Positions 29,775 to 64,000 of a stretch of DNA of 64,000 nt are shown piece by piece. The stretch is from an uncultured Dehalococcoidales bacterium. GTDB lineage: Bacteria; Chloroflexota; Dehalococcoidia; E44-bin15. The DNA lies in NCBI GenBank assembly GCA_964428725.1, contig CAYRYW010000001.1, positions 73,238-137,237 of the forward strand, given 5' to 3'. Position 1 is the stretch's first letter. Every line of letters starts with the position of its first letter. The position numbers and the translations under genes were made by a program. A model generated the notes under the pieces. The model worked only from the letters and a program-made list of their open reading frames with translations, ran no database searches and had not been told where the DNA came from.

Positions 29775-29863
29775 GGAGAGGTGTCCGAGTGGTTCATGGT
29801 GCCGCTCTCGAAAAGCGGTCTCGCCTCTGGCGAGCGTGGGTTCGAATCCCACCCTCTCCGCCA
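29775..29863 (+). tRNA. tRNA-Ser(CGA)
   Basis: GGAGAGG/CCTCTCC acceptor stem, anticodon arm ccgct-CTCGAAA-agcgg, long variable arm, GGTTCGAATCC, encoded CCA; TATAAT at 29760-29765. Confidence 0.97.
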
Positions 29864-30980: not shown

Positions 30981-31070
<90 letters not shown>

Positions 31071-41671: not shown

Positions 41672-42478
41672 GTGCGCGGCGGGTATCGACTCGGCTGGTT
41701 CTCCACAGGGCGCGGCGAAGGCTCGCGCAACCTGCTGCGCGCGGTATGGGACAGCATCACCTCGGGTGAGATAAAGGCGGACATATCCTTCGTCTTCTGC
41801 AACCGTGAATACGGCCAGGCCGAGGGCAGCGACGCATTTATCGATCAGGTTAAAGGCTACAGCATACCACTCGTCTGCGTATCGTCAAAGAAGTTCAGGG
41901 ACAAATACGGCGACCAGTGGCGGCCCAGGTTCGAGGAGGCGGCGATAGAGAGCCTCGCGGGATACGATGCAGACCTCGTCGTCCTCGCCGGCTACATGCT
42001 GGTCGTCGGCGCCGATATGTGTCGGCGCTACCCCATGCTGAACCTGCACCCCGCCCTTCCCGGCGGGCCGAAGGGGACGTGGAAAGAGGTCATCTGGGAG
42101 CTGATGGACAGGGGCGCGGTCGATACCGGCGTGATGATGCACCGCGCCACGCCGGTGCTGGACGAGGGCCCGGCGGTGACCTACTGCAGGTTCTCCATAC
42201 GCGGCGAGCCTTTCGATAAGCTATGGGACGACATACAGGATCGTTCCGTCGCCGATATACAAAATCAGGAAGGCGAGGAGAATGCGCTGTTCAGGGAGAT
42301 ACGTCGGCATGGTGCGTCGCGCGAGCTGCCGCTGATCGTCGCCACCATCAAGGCCTTCAGCCAGGGGCGTGTGCGCATCGAGGGCAATGGCATCGTCGAT
42401 AGCAGGGGTAAACCGATAGAGGCGTACGACCTGAGCATGGAGGTGGATAAGGCGGTTCAGTCGTCATTATCCGCCTGA
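41672..42478 (+). CDS. Formyltransferase-family protein (PurN-like)
   Basis: WFSTGRG, LAGYML, NLHPALPGGP, H...DEGP motifs. Confidence 0.8.
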   Translation: MRGGYRLGWFSTGRGEGSRNLLRAVWDSITSGEIKADISFVFCNREYGQAEGSDAFIDQVKGYSIPLVCVSSKKFRDKYGDQWRPRFEEAAIESLAGYDADLVVLAGYMLVVGADMCRRYPMLNLHPALPGGPKGTWKEVIWELMDRGAVDTGVMMHRATPVLDEGPAVTYCRFSIRGEPFDKLWDDIQDRSVADIQNQEGEENALFREIRRHGASRELPLIVATIKAFSQGRVRIEGNGIVDSRGKPIEAYDLSMEVDKAVQSSLSA

Positions 42479-42865
42479 GGCGAATGATCCAGATGTAGGG
42501 GCGAATGACTATTCGCCCTTCTAGATTGCCCGATCAAGTCAGGAAATGACGATTATGAGTGGGGTGATCACAGGAGTGTCGCCGGTGTCGTTGCGAGGAG
42601 TGGAGCGACGAAGCAATCCCGGTGGTGTGTGGCAGGGTGATGACGGGTGTGAAGGCGGGCGATGAGATTGCTTCGCCTCCGCCTGAGGCGGGCGGATGGG
42701 CTCGCAATGACAGAAGGTGAATGTGGGCGTTGAGATTGCCGCGCTCGCTTCGCTCGCTCGCAATGACAGAGGGAGATTGCGTTTGCCTGCAGTGGTGTGA
42801 CGAATGTTGTGTCTTACGTGTCATTGCGAGGAGTTCGCCTCTGGCGAAACGACGAAGCAATCTCT
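42462..42865. repeat. Cluster of REP-like palindromes: four TGTC-tagged units, one GTAG-tagged hairpin and one CGTC-tagged hairpin
   Basis: TGTCRTTGCGAG...GCAATC units at 42586-42620 (+), 42664-42712 (-), 42732-42768 (-) and 42819-42865 (+); GTAG-GGGCGAAT-gact-ATTCGCCC at 42495-42518; CGTC-tagged hairpin at 42462-42487. Confidence 0.85.
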
Positions 42866-60416: not shown

Positions 60417-61022
60417 ATGACAATGCAGCCGGCGCCGGAACGGCGTCCTAAGAAGATAGATCTAAATCTACTGCCGCCAGAGTATCTCCCCAAAAAGGCG
60501 TCTCGTTTAACTATCGGTTTGATCGTTGCTGCCATCATCCTTGCCTGCGTGCCGTGGCCTTTCCTGGTCATGCAGATGGGCGTCAAAAACGACAACAGCG
60601 TGCTCGATACGCAGCTGAAAGCCCTGAAACAACAGCTCGCTGTGATAAACAACGAGATAAACCAGTGCAATGCTGTACAGGCTGATATCGATGCGTGCGA
60701 GGAGCAATATGGCAGCATGTGGGATGACCTCGAGACGGTACAGGATATGGTATACGTCTGGTCCCAGATAATGGCGGATGTGCAGGAGGTGCCCAGGGGT
60801 GCTGGCGGCTCGCTGGGGGATATAAGGCAGACCGGCGATACCATCACTGTTAAAGGGGAGTTCGCCAGAGAGAAGTATGTTTATGAATATTCCATCATGC
60901 TTTCCGAGACAGGGCATTTCTCCTCGGTCACCATAAAGTCGATGTCACTCCAGGAAGGTGAATCCGGCAATGTTTACAATTTCGACATTGAGGCGAAGCT
61001 GAAAGAGGGTGGCAGCCAGTGA
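60417..61022 (+). CDS. PilN-like alignment protein
   Basis: IDLNLLPPEY, single TM segment, coiled coil, ferredoxin-like C-terminal domain. Confidence 0.75.
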   Translation: MTMQPAPERRPKKIDLNLLPPEYLPKKASRLTIGLIVAAIILACVPWPFLVMQMGVKNDNSVLDTQLKALKQQLAVINNEINQCNAVQADIDACEEQYGSMWDDLETVQDMVYVWSQIMADVQEVPRGAGGSLGDIRQTGDTITVKGEFAREKYVYEYSIMLSETGHFSSVTIKSMSLQEGESGNVYNFDIEAKLKEGGSQ

Positions 61023-61567
61023 AGAAATTTGAGCGCATTCAGCTTATACTGTCGGGGGTTTGCCTGCTGCTTCTGGGGCTGGCCATCTTCTTTGCTGTGG
61101 GTCTGTTGCAGGAGAAAGGCCGGACATCCAAGCTGGAGAAGGACATTGCCACTACAGAGAACCAGATCGATAATATCGAGGGCACATGCGTACTTATCGA
61201 GAAGCAGCTCCAGCTCGAGGAATGTCAGAATAAGCTGCAAACGGAGTCCCCGTTCCCTGCAGACGTCATCGATAATAAAGAGGTTACCAATGCCGTAATA
61301 GCCGTGGTGAGTGATGCCCGCCTGAATATGGACCGGCTGGATTACCGGGGGACATCGTCATACCAAATAGGGGACACGCAATATACAAAGGCGACATACG
61401 CCTTGCAGTGCAGCAGCCAGATAGGTAAGGAGAGCAGGTTCCTGACCTTGCTGGAGCTTTTCGAGGAGATGAGGGAAGAGAAATATCCTACGCTCTTAGT
61501 CGATAATATAAATCTGCCCGACGGGGATCCGAGGATTACGCTGGATATTATCATTATTACCCAGTAG
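61019..61567 (+). CDS. PilO-like alignment protein
   Basis: N-terminal TM segment plus coiled coil; positioned between pilN-like and pilM-like genes. Confidence 0.6.
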   Translation: MKKFERIQLILSGVCLLLLGLAIFFAVGLLQEKGRTSKLEKDIATTENQIDNIEGTCVLIEKQLQLEECQNKLQTESPFPADVIDNKEVTNAVIAVVSDARLNMDRLDYRGTSSYQIGDTQYTKATYALQCSSQIGKESRFLTLLELFEEMREEKYPTLLVDNINLPDGDPRITLDIIIITQ

Positions 61568-61593
61568 TGCATGCATTTGTGTTCTAGTCAGGA

Positions 61594-62718
61594 GTGATGG
61601 CGATGGCGGAAGACAGAGAGCTAACCAGGGCGGAGAAGCGGGCCGCAGCGCGCGCGGAGAAGGCACGGGCACAGGAGGAAGCCAGGGCTAAGAAAGAGGA
61701 GGAGAAAAGAGCCAGAGAGGAAGCGCGCAAGGCCCGGGCGGAAGAGCGCAAGGCTAAGAAGGGTGAGGAGAAGCCCGGGGAGGCTGAGAAAGCGGATACC
61801 GCTAAAAAGGAAAAGAAAGCCAAGCCCCCCAAAGCTGGTAAGGGGGAGAAGCGCATCGTGACCATGAGCATAGAGGGCAACGACCTGCGGTTGCTGTATT
61901 TCTCCGGCAAGGAAATTGAATCCTGGGACAGCGTGGCCTTCGCCCCCAATCTGTTGAAGGTCGGGCAGGTGTCCGAGCCTGAGGGGCTGTCGGCGGTGAT
62001 AAAGAGTGCGCTTGAGGGCAGGGATATAACCCGCGCCCAGTTCCTGTGTTCCCTGCCGGGGCTCAGGTCCGTATCCCGGGTGTTGACCATACCCAGGACC
62101 GGTAAAAAAGAGATGGCGGATGTGGTTCAGCGCGAGGTAAACAAGCTGATGACCGTTTCTATGGAAGATAACTATCTTCACTGGCAACCCCTGACCGCTG
62201 AGAAGTCGGAGCAGATGGAGGTCTTTGTCCTGGCAGTTCCCAAGGAGCCCTTCGATATATTCATGGAAGCCCTCCGCATGGCCGAAATCAAGCCTGCGGC
62301 AATAGATTTGAAACCGCTTGCCCTGGCGCGGGCGGTGAATCAGAGGGATGCCATAATAGCCAGCGGCGAGAGTAACAGCATGGAGCTCGTTATAATTGTC
62401 GATGATACGCCGGTGCTGATACGCAGCGTGTTCCTCGGGGAGGGGATCGTGACGCAGGACTACGCCGTGGGCCGCATCAGCGACGAGCTGGGACGTACCA
62501 TACTGACCTATAACGAGATCAACAAGGATAAGCCTCTGGATCCGGAGGTTCCCATTTATCTCTGCGGTGGCTCCGCCGGAGGCGTTCCCTTCGCCCTGAA
62601 CGTGGCGGCGCTTACCGGGCGCACCGTGCAGCCGCTGGAGCCGCCGATACCGTATCCTGACGATTTTCCCGTCGCTGACTTCATGGTCAACATCGGTCTC
62701 CTGCTCAAGGTCTTATGA
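61594..62718 (+). CDS. pilM: PilM-like actin-fold protein with charged N-terminal extension
   Basis: AIDLKPLALAR, IYLCGGSA and terminal VNIGLLLK, typical of PilM. Confidence 0.75.
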   Translation: MMAMAEDRELTRAEKRAAARAEKARAQEEARAKKEEEKRAREEARKARAEERKAKKGEEKPGEAEKADTAKKEKKAKPPKAGKGEKRIVTMSIEGNDLRLLYFSGKEIESWDSVAFAPNLLKVGQVSEPEGLSAVIKSALEGRDITRAQFLCSLPGLRSVSRVLTIPRTGKKEMADVVQREVNKLMTVSMEDNYLHWQPLTAEKSEQMEVFVLAVPKEPFDIFMEALRMAEIKPAAIDLKPLALARAVNQRDAIIASGESNSMELVIIVDDTPVLIRSVFLGEGIVTQDYAVGRISDELGRTILTYNEINKDKPLDPEVPIYLCGGSAGGVPFALNVAALTGRTVQPLEPPIPYPDDFPVADFMVNIGLLLKVL

Positions 62719-63533
62719 CAGATTGCCTTATCATCCTTGGCTTTGCCTTCTTCGGTATGGCGGTTGGCAGTTTCCTCAACGTCTGCATCGATCGCCTGCC
62801 CGCTGGAGAGTCAATCATACGTTTGCCATCGCATTGCGAATCGTGCAAGCGCAGGATACGGTGGCGCGATCTCGTTCCCGTGTTCAGCTACATGTGGCTG
62901 CGCGGACGCTGCCGCCACTGCGGGGAGCGCATCCCCCTGCGCCTGCCGCTGGTGGAGCTGGCGACGGGCGTAATCTTCGGGTTGCTGGCGTGGCACTACG
63001 GCCTCAATCCTCAGCTGATAATGGCACTGGTTTACGTCTGCCTGTTCCTGCTCATCTTCGTCATCGATCTGGAGCAGCAAATGGTGCTCTACGCAGTGGT
63101 GCTCCCGGCGATAGCCCTGGCATTCATTTTCTCCTTTTTCTGGGGAGGGTTCGGCGACTACTGGCCGCAATCGGGAATCGCCAATACCTACCTCGACGGG
63201 CTAGCCTGCGCCTTCTTCGGGGGAGCCGTGGGTTTCGTCTTCATGATAGTTCCGTATATCATCGCGCGAATGCACTACGGAGAAGAGGGCATGGGGCAGG
63301 GCGATATCTACCTTGCCGTCCTTATCGGCATGGCAACCGGCTTTCCTCTGGTCATAATGGCATTGATCATGGGCATCATTGCCGGTGGCATCGCGGCGGT
63401 GGCGTTGATAGCGTTGAAAATCAGGAAGAGGAAGGATCCCATAGCGTTCGGGCCTTTCCTGGCCGCTGCGGCGATGCTGATCCTCGTCTGGGGCGCTCCG
63501 ATAATGGAGTGGTACTCCGGGCTCGTCTATTAA
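62715..63533 (+). CDS. pilD: Prepilin peptidase (A24)
   Basis: GSFLNVCIDRLP, SHCESC...GRCRHC, FVID, MGQGD and AFGPFL motifs. Confidence 0.95.
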   Translation: MTDCLIILGFAFFGMAVGSFLNVCIDRLPAGESIIRLPSHCESCKRRIRWRDLVPVFSYMWLRGRCRHCGERIPLRLPLVELATGVIFGLLAWHYGLNPQLIMALVYVCLFLLIFVIDLEQQMVLYAVVLPAIALAFIFSFFWGGFGDYWPQSGIANTYLDGLACAFFGGAVGFVFMIVPYIIARMHYGEEGMGQGDIYLAVLIGMATGFPLVIMALIMGIIAGGIAAVALIALKIRKRKDPIAFGPFLAAAAMLILVWGAPIMEWYSGLVY

Positions 63534-63553
63534 GCCTCTACTGCGTGTCTCCC

Positions 63554-63699
63554 TTGTCATTGCAATTAGTTGGGGCGGGTTGTAAACCCGCCCTGCGCGT
63601 ATGGGGCGGACGCATGATTTCGTGAGGGATGTCGTATTTCCAGTGTCATTGCGAGGAGTCCGCCTTTGGCGGGCGACGAAGCAATCCCGGTGGTGTGTG
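63554..63699. repeat. REP-like cluster upstream of the GIY-YIG gene
   Basis: Truncated TGTCATTGC (63555-63563); GTTG-tagged GGGCGGGTT/AACCCGCCC hairpin (63569-63593); full TGTCATTGCGAGGAG...CGACGAAGCAATCCC unit (63644-63688). Confidence 0.85.
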
Positions 63700-63703
63700 T
63701 AAT

Positions 63704-63991
63704 ATGAAACGCAACTACTACGTATACATCATGGCAAATAAGGGAAACACCGTTCTATACACAGGTGTCACCAATGATCTGCAAAGGCGGGTATACGAAC
63801 ACGGGGAGAAGCTGGCTGAAGGCTTCACAAAGCGGTACAACGTGTGCAAGCTGGTGTATTATGAGGCCTTCGACGACGCTGATAGCGCCATTTCAAGGGA
63901 GAAGCAGATTAAGAGTGGCTCCAAGCAGAAGAAGAACGAGCTTGTTGAGGGTATGAATGCCTCGTGGGATGATCTGTACGGCGAATTGTAG
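63704..63991 (+). CDS. Small stand-alone GIY-YIG nuclease (95 aa)
   Basis: YYVYIM...LYTGVT, RRVYEH and REKQIK motifs; ATG 63704 lies immediately after the REP unit. Confidence 0.9.
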   Translation: MKRNYYVYIMANKGNTVLYTGVTNDLQRRVYEHGEKLAEGFTKRYNVCKLVYYEAFDDADSAISREKQIKSGSKQKKNELVEGMNASWDDLYGEL

Positions 63992-64000
63992 GGATTATCG

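Follow-up and report, generated by a model that had tools for sequence, protein, structure and literature searches.

A minimal Slx1-like GIY-YIG nuclease gene set between inverted CGTC/TGTC-tagged REP hairpins, a candidate partner enzyme for this class of repeat

We found a 95-aa GIY-YIG nuclease gene between inverted TGTC-tagged hairpins at the right end of a 64-kb stretch of DNA from an uncultured Dehalococcoidales bacterium (hereafter the window), and this module of gene and repeats recurs across phyla, making the nuclease a first candidate partner enzyme for CGTC/TGTC-tagged REPs. REPs are among the most abundant bacterial non-coding repeats and, to our knowledge, a partner enzyme is known for the GTAG class only (RAYT). 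The CGTC superfamily was described by Di Nocera, De Gregorio and Rocco (2013, BMC Genomics 14:522; PMC3733652) and includes Neisseria dRS3 and Rickettsia RPE-4/RPE-6; its tag has the variants TGTC and CCTC, genomic copy numbers are high, inverted dimers are frequent, and the repeats lie mostly downstream of genes (PMC3733652). That survey tied no enzyme to CGTC REPs and left their mobiliser as its closing question (PMC3733652), in line with the statement, in an earlier note made from this DNA, that no mobiliser is established for the CGTC/TGTC class. Our literature search, which was weak on subscription journals, found nothing linking GIY-YIG proteins to REPs.

The earlier note had placed an intact GIY-YIG gene 15 bp behind a TGTC hairpin, and both were found (Pfam PF01541, E=1e-17; Table 1). 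The forward unit (TGTCATTGCGAGGAGTCCGCCTTTGGCGGGCGACGAAGCAATCCC) ends 15 nt ahead of the ATG, and DNA folding gave a two-stem structure, with ATTGC/GCAAT as stem 1, GAG//CGACGAA as internal loop and TCCGCC-TTTG-GCGGG as the variable stem 2. Within the spacer, the first 11 nt (part of CCGGTGGTGTGTG) are common to gene-less doublets, and TGTAATATG also occurs in the element that relatives carry at the orthologue of the 42.5-42.9 kb REP cluster (site A). A 27-mer (GCGACGAAGCAATCCCGGTGGTGTGTG) that the note had reported as identical at both places proved exact and occurs only twice in the window (42605-42631 and 63673-63699), with none expected by chance and a match in 0 of 100 shuffles. Sequence beyond the window edge was read from locus L001, which opens with an exact copy of the window's final 10,297 nt; past the edge, six independent assemblies give the same sequence. 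The bases running past the GIY-YIG stop, TAG GGATTATCGCGCAATGACAGG, form a reverse unit that begins at the stop codon, so the right-hand REP that the note had suspected from the last bases of the window is indeed present; this copy is degenerate, with 17 nt of its hairpin deleted relative to the homologous element in a relative. Further off-window lie two full units, one forward and one reverse, and another REP cluster. The 64-kb window holds no second GIY-YIG gene, and no sigma-70-type promoter for this one was found by a simple consensus scan.

Table 1. REP units, spacer, linker and nuclease gene in the window, with positions counted from its first letter.
Feature	Position	Strand	Remarks
Two more GTCA-tagged palindromes, other subfamilies	42461-42551		Relative L094 has arrays of these subfamilies
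Forward REP unit, short interior	42586-42620	+	3′ flank CCGGTGGTGTGTG identical to that of the gene-bearing copy
Linker of gene-less doublet	42621-42663		Position held by the GIY-YIG gene in relatives
Reverse REP unit	42664-42712	-	Tags-outward doublet partner of 42586-42620
Reverse REP unit	42732-42768	-	Orthologous to the unit directly 3′ of the GIY-YIG stop in L090, L093 and L094
Forward REP unit	42819-42864	+	Orthologous and near-identical to L090 3451-3497
Forward REP unit	63644-63688	+	TGTC tag, stem 1, internal loop, stem 2, CCC tail; stem-1 covariation
Spacer, 15 nt, unit to ATG	63689-63703	+	GGTGGTGTGTGTAAT
GIY-YIG nuclease gene, 95 aa, minimal Slx1/UPF0213-like domain	63704-63991	+	Family-invariant residues; dN/dS
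Right-hand reverse unit, start	63990-64000	-	(TA)GGGATTATCG; off-window continuation ...CGCAATGACAGG (L001 10287-10309)

The core motif TGTCRTTGCGAG is present in five copies in the window (42586+, 42701-, 42757-, 42819+ and 63644+) against 0.55 expected, and these positions agree with the assignment of the four units at 42.6-42.9 kb to the same family as the unit at 63.6 kb. The first two units of the cluster form a gene-less doublet that folds into one long hairpin (z=-3.3). Just upstream, the palindrome GTCATTATCCGCC..GGCGAATGATCC overlaps the stop of a formyltransferase gene, and the reverse unit among these palindromes is AGATTGCCCGATCAAGTCAGGAAATGAC. The doublet had been proposed to be an internally deleted derivative of the gene-bearing element. 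By manual comparison it matches the left end of that element up to 4 nt before the ATG, in keeping with the proposal, but its linker is not recognisably gene-derived: there was no convincing similarity to the GIY-YIG gene beyond the linker's first bases, nor, by manual alignment, between its right half (GGGTGTGAAGGCGGGCGAT) and the gene's 3′ end. The pair might, at most tentatively, be read as such a derivative.

All five window units bear an unpaired 5′ TGTC tag, of which GTC is conserved across loci, and their first stem is ATTGC/GCAAT with a CCC or CTC tail. The tag, the A-T/T-A stem start and the short unpaired tail are those of the CGTC superfamily, and inverted dimers, frequent there, may be a further likeness. 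Units beside alphaproteobacterial homologues show the superfamily's one stem of 8-9 bp closed by a loop of 4-5 nt. In the window units the first stem measures 5 bp and is separated from a variable second stem by a conserved GAG//CGAA internal loop; the interiors span 7-67 nt. Window-type units occur in Chloroflexota and in many phyla that the 2013 survey does not list (PMC3733652). The window units are a structural variant of the CGTC/TGTC superfamily. When units were picked by their 5′ half alone, their own stem complement was present in 234/253 ATTGC, 35/41 ATCCT, 30/33 ATTCT, 24/26 ATTTC and 22/23 ATTCC units (cross-control ~10%), all covarying stems begin with AT, and the ATTGC units kept hairpin potential through 249 distinct variable interiors. 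Single units folded no better than shuffles (z -0.4 to -2.2), and the support for single-unit hairpins therefore comes from covariation and not from thermodynamics alone; the hairpin is structurally constrained. The window contains five units in its 64 kb; the sampled loci average 0.5-0.9 per kb, and among their pairs the tags-outward arrangement was commonest (81 vs 60 and 62). A generic finder of GTC plus a perfect stem, which gave 35 matches in the window against 25 in shuffles, was dropped. Rfam 15 returned two tRNAs only for the window at gathering threshold, and nothing meaningful over the REP region at E<=5.

The protein belongs to the GIY-YIG nuclease superfamily, and its closest kin in fold and sequence are stand-alone prokaryotic Slx1-like/UPF0213 proteins (PDB 1zg2/1ywl). 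The superfamily's hallmarks, namely the GIY and YIG motifs, a central Arg, a catalytic Glu and the alpha/beta fold, are all present. PF01541 was the sole Pfam match above threshold, with GIY_YIG_2 below the cut-off; an AF2 model (pLDDT 86) resembled 1zg2, Slx1 and UvrC-N, Foldseek ranked 1zg2 first, and profile matching gave E=8e-7 for 1zg2 against no better than 0.008 for UvrC. Like these proteins and eukaryotic Slx1 it is a minimal domain without accessory domains, and its 95 aa leave it without the C-terminal DNA-binding domain of GIY-YIG homing endonucleases. We know of no description of a REP association for UPF0213. The family residues Y6, Y8, Y19, G21, R29, E32, H33, E66 and N85 are all kept, and Y6/Y8, Y19-T-G21, R29, H33 and E66 are invariant across 23 homologues. 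The window protein has only ~31% identity to 1zg2 (UPF0213, BH0048). At sequence level it may also differ from the Slx1 cluster in the family's invariant C-terminal N85: according to a 2006 survey, that cluster lacks the C-terminal Asn by which the UvrC lineage is marked (PMC1564403). Against its closest homologues dN/dS was ~0.1. Searches of NCBIfam, PADLOC and PHROGs returned nothing informative, just 5 relatives of the family turned up in 2.9 million viral contigs, and tblastn against plasmids gave 1-2 copies of the gene per record or complete replicon, a count uninformative on bursts.

We then asked how regularly the gene and the repeat occur together. A strict detector was run on 82 genome loci (about 80 species). 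In 39 of them a forward unit ended no more than 60 nt ahead of the ATG, where 1.4% was expected (P about 1e-49), and in 28 a reverse unit started <=35 nt past the stop (P about 1e-35); ten of the latter start 0-1 nt past it, as TGAGATTGC. Database proteins over-called at the N-terminus contain the translated upstream REP. An independent set of 79 metagenome loci yielded 28 forward and 29 reverse units (P about 1e-24 and 1e-30, respectively). With a relaxed detector applied to 153 homologous loci drawn from genomes and metagenomes, many of them MAGs, a unit lay <=100 nt from the gene in 148 (97%), compared with 14% at pseudo-positions in the same loci; REPs cluster together and so inflate local density, yet this same-locus control still reached only 14%, and the adjacency is far above what REP density predicts. 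The three outcomes that the earlier note had named as counting against its idea on sequence grounds (a missing right-hand REP, homologues mostly without flanking REPs, adjacency explained by REP abundance) were each looked for, and none was found. The canonical order of forward unit, gene and reverse unit was seen in 66/153 loci (43%). Layouts vary, however: in ~10 loci the unit on the upstream side of the gene is a reverse one, and in Anabaena both units are downstream.

The module is conserved across phyla, and its repeat type tracks the protein clade. The ATTGC core flanks the GIY-YIG gene in at least 14 phyla. Protein pairs sharing a repeat type but from different phyla were 60.5% identical, while pairs of different type from the same phylum were 57.5% identical (permutation p<0.0005), a modest effect in a sample selected by similarity to one query. 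In Bacillota, one protein accompanied by an ATTGC REP shared 63% identity with the ATTGC group and 53% with other Bacillota. Classical CGTC REPs flank the homologues in Rhizobium, Novosphingobium, Sphingobium and Azospirillum lipoferum, the last with its cassette inserted between sufB and sufC, and dRS3 units flank the homologue of Neisseria gonorrhoeae.

Close relatives differ in where the cassette lies, which we take as evidence of its mobility. Relatives carry it at site A, the exact intergenic site of the window's gene-less cluster, and a check of their orthologous pilD|pilin sites (site B) for empty sites, as the earlier note had suggested, found these clean or REP-only, with no cassette. 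The difference at site A may reflect either gain or loss. Homology between site-A and site-B cassettes runs from the GTCA tag to past the right-hand units. Two Anabaena species have a ~430 nt block alone in common (96% gene identity) within unrelated ±5 kb flanks, and comparison of L113 with L115 shows the cassette flipped between the units on either side of it. Of cassettes occupying different sites, the two most alike share ~80% nucleotide identity (dS about 1.1), and ancient paralogy followed by differential loss may account for different-site cassettes. A metagenome scan for near-identical cassettes of the window lineage elsewhere recovered the same locus only, all others having <=73% identity; with no near-identical gene-bearing copies in different contexts, there is no sign of a recent burst.

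We think it probable that gene and hairpins form one REPtron-like module in which the nuclease acts on the hairpins and the host completes the copying. The cassette measures ~400-450 bp and comprises a TGTC hairpin, a ~15 nt spacer, the 95-aa Slx1-like GIY-YIG gene and an inverted hairpin at the stop, with hairpins belonging to the CGTC/TGTC-tagged REP superfamily. We infer that the nuclease would recognise the tag and the hairpin, extruded as ssDNA or as a cruciform, and would nick beside the tag; Slx1 cuts branched and stem-loop DNA, a preference that suits hairpin recognition. The GIY-YIG active site catalyses hydrolysis only, leaving ligatable 3′-OH and 5′-P ends, and we know of no GIY-YIG enzyme that catalyses strand transfer. 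Rejoining and copying must therefore fall to host ligase, replication or recombination, and spread would proceed by copying, induced by a break or nick, beside units already present or other hairpins, in place of HUH-type transesterification. On this reading, gene-less units, whether single or paired as in 42586-42712, would serve in trans as non-autonomous substrates. The earlier note had envisaged an autonomous REP-[GIY-YIG]-REP element as an analogue of RAYT/REPIN; its recurrent, REP-flanked module holds up, but with a hydrolysis-only active site the RAYT-like cut-and-rejoin mechanism is not simply transferable.

Alternatively, though we consider this unlikely, the gene could be a stand-alone homing-endonuclease gene living as a parasite on REP dimers already in place, with the REPs as its target and not its ends. 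Gene-less dimers would be cut, repair from an occupied dimer would copy the gene with the flanking units as homology arms, and the REPs themselves would be spread by something else. The GIY-YIG fold is classical among homing endonucleases, and an enzyme that only hydrolyses is well matched to homing by break repair (PMC1564403). The inversion between flanking units, the intergenic site occupied in relatives and gene-less in the window, and the insertion inside the suf operon of A. lipoferum all fit such a gene, and the patchy, selfish distribution, intergenic or intra-operon insertion and plausible spread by host repair recall I-TevI and the T4 Seg proteins. Unlike those enzymes, however, the window protein is a catalytic domain alone, with neither linker nor DNA-binding domain, and its gene is chromosomal, not phage- or intron-borne, and is tied to a dispersed hairpin repeat. 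The near absence of the family from viral contigs also speaks against homing. The gene does occupy the linker position of gene-less tags-outward doublets, but it substitutes for the linker instead of interrupting it. Since the REP core travels with the gene through those 14 or more phyla, repeat type following protein clade, pure parasitism would need identical REPs to pre-exist everywhere. Homing partly overlaps the REPtron-like module because repair-mediated copying figures in both.

Less likely again is a housekeeping role in the host: the protein would be an Slx1-like, structure-specific repair nuclease that mobilises nothing, and REPs would accumulate around its gene or serve as its transcript hairpins in termination, stability or translational control. 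Its Slx1/UPF0213-like fold, low copy number and strong purifying selection are as expected of such an enzyme, and a 2006 phylogenomic study saw prokaryotic Slx1-like proteins as vertically inherited repair enzymes (PMC1564403). Given that no sigma-70-type promoter was found by the consensus scan, the hairpins could be RNA elements, and REPs generally lie downstream of genes (PMC3733652). Such a role sits poorly with the position-specific architecture, one unit ~15 nt before the ATG and one at the stop codon, with the excess of nearby units over control positions, and with a non-coding repeat core that is conserved across phyla only beside the GIY-YIG gene. Congeneric genomes also differ in the locus of the cassette, relatives differ in its presence or absence at a site, and the repeats match no Rfam family. 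A domesticated, RAYT-like status would fit both the housekeeping role and the REPtron-like module. That the adjacency arose by chance from high intergenic REP density is extremely improbable: REPs are clustered (472 strict units in the sampled loci, with several clusters near the window locus), but the strict detector found 35-48% against 1-3% expected in both independent sets, and the relaxed detector gave 97% against 14% at control positions.

Of known systems, REPtrons (RAYT, or TnpA-REP, an HUH-Y1 transposase, with GTAG REPs and REPIN doublets) are closest in layout. In both, one small gene in one or few copies lies between inverted tagged hairpins of a family dispersed in the same genome, the repeat is much commoner away from the gene, in single units and inverted doublets (judged for the cassette by the sampled loci), and repeat type co-varies with protein clade. 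The GIY-YIG cassette nonetheless falls outside the REPtron class, the relation being an analogy of architecture: its enzyme is a 95-aa hydrolytic GIY-YIG protein, its tag is (C/T)GTC in place of GTAG, and, as GIY-YIG chemistry has no covalent intermediate, the joining step must differ. IS200/IS605 elements, which are ssDNA transposons with hairpin ends, resemble it in their very small size and in subterminal hairpins beside a short recognition or cleavage motif; they differ in enzyme class and in their circular ssDNA intermediates, which the cassette is not known to form.

A wider reading, which we hold tentatively and with some doubt, is that the Slx1-like mini GIY-YIG protein could be the dedicated enzyme of the whole CGTC/TGTC superfamily (dRS3/NIME, rhizobial and sphingomonad REPs, possibly Rickettsia RPEs), and that no autonomous mobile element known from bacteria would then be smaller than the ~400 bp cassette, which would need only a nuclease plus host repair or ligation to spread, unlike any prokaryotic transposase class described. 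The conserved, position-specific and co-varying association makes the mobiliser question directly testable with a single small protein and a single hairpin of 45 nt. Should the nuclease act on the hairpins, it would represent a new enzyme class for repeat propagation and could help to explain repeat clusters from Neisseria to cyanobacteria and Dehalococcoidia, and about 13,000 protein clusters (50% identity) annotated only as "GIY-YIG nuclease family protein" would gain a function. It might also provide a very small structure- and sequence-specific nuclease, and gene-caller errors in which ORFs are extended through REPs would be explained.

The window holds a single GIY-YIG gene, with no second one found across its 64 kb, and this 95-aa gene begins 15 nt behind a tagged palindrome, exactly as the earlier note described. 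The 27-mer GCGACGAAGCAATCCCGGTGGTGTGTG occurs exactly twice in the window, identically at 42605-42631 and 63673-63699 (0 in 100 shuffles), and the core TGTCRTTGCGAG occurs five times (42586+, 42701-, 42757-, 42819+, 63644+) against 0.55 expected. We then followed the sequence past the window edge: the final 10,297 nt are identical to the head of contig L001, the next 1 kb agrees across six assemblies with 0-1 mismatch, and the exact protein sequence is encoded on eight public contigs, every one at the pilD|pilin locus. The right-hand inverted unit that had been proposed as a test is present and runs past 64000: from the stop codon on, the sequence is TAG GGATTATCGCGCAATGACAGG, a reverse unit starting at the stop codon, though a degenerate one (17 nt of hairpin missing relative to a relative's homologous element, with folding lost). 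Behind it lie a half unit, then one complete forward and one complete reverse unit. Past two pilin genes there is a further doublet cluster of inverted unit pairs, with the same left linker, CCCGGTGGTGTGTGGCAGGGTG, as in 42586-42712.

Positions of the gene, its units and related features (window coordinates unless a contig is named)
Feature	Position	Remark
GIY-YIG ORF, 95 aa	63704-63991	at window end; Pfam GIY-YIG match, E=1e-17
Forward REP unit, 45 nt, TGTCATTGCGAGGAG-TCCGCCTTTGGCGGG-CGACGAAGCAATCCC	63644-63688	ends 15 nt before the GIY-YIG ORF
120-aa ORF	63629-63991	gene-caller artefact, extended upstream through the REP
Prepilin peptidase gene	62715-63533	upstream neighbour of the GIY-YIG gene
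Orphan 5' half unit TTGTCATTGCAAT	63553-63567	directly behind the pilD stop codon
GC-rich hairpin GGGCGGGTTGTAAACCCGCCC	downstream of 63553-63567	recurs at L001 12107-12127
Type IV pilus-like cluster	60417-63533; L001 10734-12077	genes for PilM/PilN-like proteins, a prepilin peptidase and, behind strong promoters, two N-methyl pilins; closest hits point to a Dehalococcoidia genome
Two tRNA genes	29775-29860; 30981-31067	sole Rfam matches within the window
A. lipoferum 4B plasmid AZO_p3 cassette	L099 2870-3490	CGTC CGTCATCCCCGCGAAGGCGGGGATCCAG dimers both sides; located within the suf operon, separating sufB from sufC
Rhizobium sp. CIAT894 homologue		forward unit 19 nt upstream, reverse unit 31 nt downstream
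N. aromaticivorans homologue		reverse unit begins at stop codon
Sphingobium homologue		reverse unit 5 nt past stop
S. meliloti homologue		CCTC-type units
N. gonorrhoeae homologue		dRS3 units
Half-unit tandem duplications	L054 upstream of 4998; L089 1820-1900; L094 480-560; L022 upstream of 5001	

The protein family comprises at least 7,995 proteins at E<=1e-5 (word-indexed search, 8,000 candidates scored) and 13,184 clusters at 50% identity (E<=1e-3), with 55-80% identity among members across phyla. Across 80 genome loci from ~80 species, the recurrent left side is GTCATTGCGAG, a variable hairpin, CGAAGCAATCTC, a spacer of 2-55 nt (median ~16) and ATG; on the right, the stop is followed by GATTGCTTCG, a variable hairpin and CTCGCAATGACA, the reverse unit often beginning at the stop codon as TGAGATTGC. 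A strict detector placed a forward unit <=60 nt upstream at 39 of 82 genome loci (expected 1.4%, P ~1e-49) and a reverse unit <=35 nt downstream at 28 of 82 (expected ~1%, P ~1e-35); the same two measures gave 28 and 29 of 79 independent metagenome loci (P ~1e-24 and 1e-30), adjacency beyond what REP density would give by chance. With a relaxed detector, a unit lay <=100 nt from the gene at 148/153 loci, versus 14% at pseudo-positions >=900 nt distant within those loci. The canonical forward-gene-reverse order was seen at 66/153; architecture differs between loci, many of which come from MAGs. Over-called N-termini of database proteins also translate the REP (e.g. CHCEES..RRSNL, VIARS..ATKQS, MSLRG...), so a unit lies directly upstream of the gene in many species. 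Gene callers often run these ORFs through the REP into products of 110-169 aa (P0002, P0003, P0008, P0093 and many cluster representatives). The earlier note had held that a missing right-hand unit, homologues mostly free of REPs, or adjacency expected by chance would count against its proposal; the right-hand unit and the detector results therefore speak the other way on all three computational points. We regard the association of gene and units as real with very little doubt.

As DNA, a unit folds into a first stem (ATTGC/GCAAT), an internal loop in which GAG faces CGAA, and a second stem. Single units were no more stable than shuffles, so structural support comes from covariation. Defining units solely by their 5' half (GTCA-N4-GA) and searching downstream for the stem's own complement, we recovered it for ATTGC in 234/253, ATCCT in 35/41, ATTCT in 30/33, ATTTC in 24/26 and ATTCC in 22/23, while complements of other stem types were found in ~10%. 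Among ATTGC units we counted 249 different interiors, 7-67 nt long, that keep hairpin potential; conservation without pairing is seen in the (T/C)GTC tag, in the GAG//CGAA loop and in a tail that reads CTC or CCC. In many loci the shortest interiors are 7-nt GC-NNN-GC mini-hairpins (GCGAAAC, GCGTAGC and others), which resemble d(GCGAAGC), a very stable DNA mini-hairpin, and this likeness would favour structure at the DNA rather than the RNA level. No Rfam family matched the units in searches of the window and the REP region.

The closest homologues, P0002 (82% identity) and P0004 (80%), lie between a formyltransferase and a hydrolase gene, a place orthologous to the intergenic stretch at 42.47-42.91 kb in the window (flanking genes collinear, 71-73% nucleotide identity). 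There, the unit after the stop codon in the relatives has its counterpart in the window's reverse unit 42732-42768, and the window's forward unit 42819-42864 is almost identical to L090 3451-3497. Where relatives hold the cassette (gene plus flanking units), the window thus shows a REP cluster lacking the gene, and its own cassette sits instead at pilD|pilin. Comparison of orthologous pilD-downstream loci, as had been suggested, revealed gene-less sites: a clean, REP-free spacer of 170 nt in a 63%-identical relative and an 800-nt REP cluster in a 72%-identical one. Homology between the cassettes of the two sites begins at the GTCA tag, extends through spacer, ORF, reverse unit and one more half unit, then stops. 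Their ORFs share 80-81% nucleotide identity, above neighbouring housekeeping genes (dN/dS ~0.1), and the divergence is old (dS ~1.1); we found no recent identical cassette copies at different sites. In two Anabaena species, the common block is only ~430 nt, namely the gene (96% identity) and downstream dimer, ending ...CGCAATGACAA, within +/-5 kb flanks that are otherwise unrelated. Two related metagenome contigs (L113 2300-3000, L115 1560-2260) share neighbour genes but carry the cassette in opposite orientations between its flanking inverted units, which suggests a flip via recombination or cleavage at the units. The family is nearly absent from viral contigs (5 relatives in 2.9 million). 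The earlier proposal that 42586-42712 is an internally deleted derivative draws weak support from 14 shared nt at the left; comparison of the remaining linker with the gene gave no convincing similarity.

The ATTGC core accompanies the gene in Chloroflexota, Cyanobacteria, Desulfobacterota, Planctomycetota, Nitrospirota, Atribacterota, WOR-3, Ignavibacteria/Bacteroidota, Patescibacteria, Omnitrophota, Elusimicrobiota, Bacillota, Alphaproteobacteria and Gammaproteobacteria. Protein identity was 60.5% for the same repeat type in different phyla versus 57.5% for different types in the same phylum (permutation p<0.0005), a modest effect in a query-biased sample. One Bacillota protein whose gene has an ATTGC REP shows 63% identity to the ATTGC group but 53% to other Bacillota. 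At one locus, a divergent paralogue lying 2.5 kb away from the main gene copy follows a unit of another type, GTCATTCCGA..TCGGAATC. On Planktothrix agardhii plasmid p1 (L089 1-3264), a defence island contains a homologue that has GTCATTCTGAG-type units, with an MmeI-type restriction-modification gene on one side and DISARM drmA on the other.

The CGTC-tagged REP superfamily was defined by Di Nocera et al. 2013 (PMC3733652); its tag may also be TGTC or CCTC, stems start with AT, tails are short, inverted dimers predominate, and members include Neisseria dRS3 (CGTC-1) and Rickettsia RPE-4 and RPE-6. That survey describes a dedicated transposase as apparently lacking, in agreement with the earlier note, which names no established dedicated mobiliser for this class. 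In complete replicons, precisely this kind of unit borders the genes for homologues of the protein (table), and the A. lipoferum cassette looks like a selfish insertion. In the library searched, no paper contained "GIY-YIG" together with "repetitive extragenic palindromic", and related searches were also negative; a mobiliser role for the nuclease, if true, would fill a gap that the 2013 survey named explicitly.

The AF2 model of the protein (pLDDT 86) is closest to UPF0213 BH0048 (1zg2), then to an Slx1-flap DNA complex (7cq4; TM 0.62, rmsd 2.5 Å) and third to the UvrC N-terminal domain. It is without a DNA-binding extension, and the catalytic residues are invariant in the family. Dunin-Horkawicz et al. 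2006 (PMC1564403) grouped 1zg2 with stand-alone prokaryotic Slx1-like domains of predicted repair role and did not mention repeats. Together, our results demonstrate a hairpin-gene-hairpin module that is conserved, structurally constrained, co-varying and relocating. It has the architecture of a REPtron (a RAYT, or HUH transposase, gene flanked by GTAG-tagged REPs) on a different nuclease fold. Of the RAYT/REPIN-like mobiliser first proposed, this module stands, and action of the nuclease on the hairpins is a step we infer; on balance, we lean towards the nuclease being the mobiliser of the units. It would recognise the tag and hairpin and nick beside them, and because GIY-YIG chemistry is hydrolytic, propagation would need the host's ligation, replication or recombination, a spread less like HUH transposition than like homing. 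The main rival, a homing-type parasite of REP dimers already present, has the repair-copying step in common with this explanation; we disfavour it, as repeat and gene are co-transferred across phyla and the protein has no DNA-binding domain. A purely housekeeping nuclease with coincidental REPs explains neither the positional precision nor the site polymorphism.

The main type is accompanied by two or more other subfamilies of GTCA-tagged palindromes, GTCATTATCCGGC..GCCGGATGATCC and GTCATTGCCCGAC..TCGGGCAA (window 42461-42551; L094 590-950). One at 42461-42551 overlaps the formyltransferase stop codon, and in the relative L094 they make long mixed arrays. Tandem duplications of the tag-proximal half unit alone recur (e.g. 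TTTGTCATCCCGATTTCCAAA x3, GGTGGAGGGTGGTGGACTCGCAATGAC x2; table), a hint that events at the tag or 5' arm, or close by, have happened more than once.
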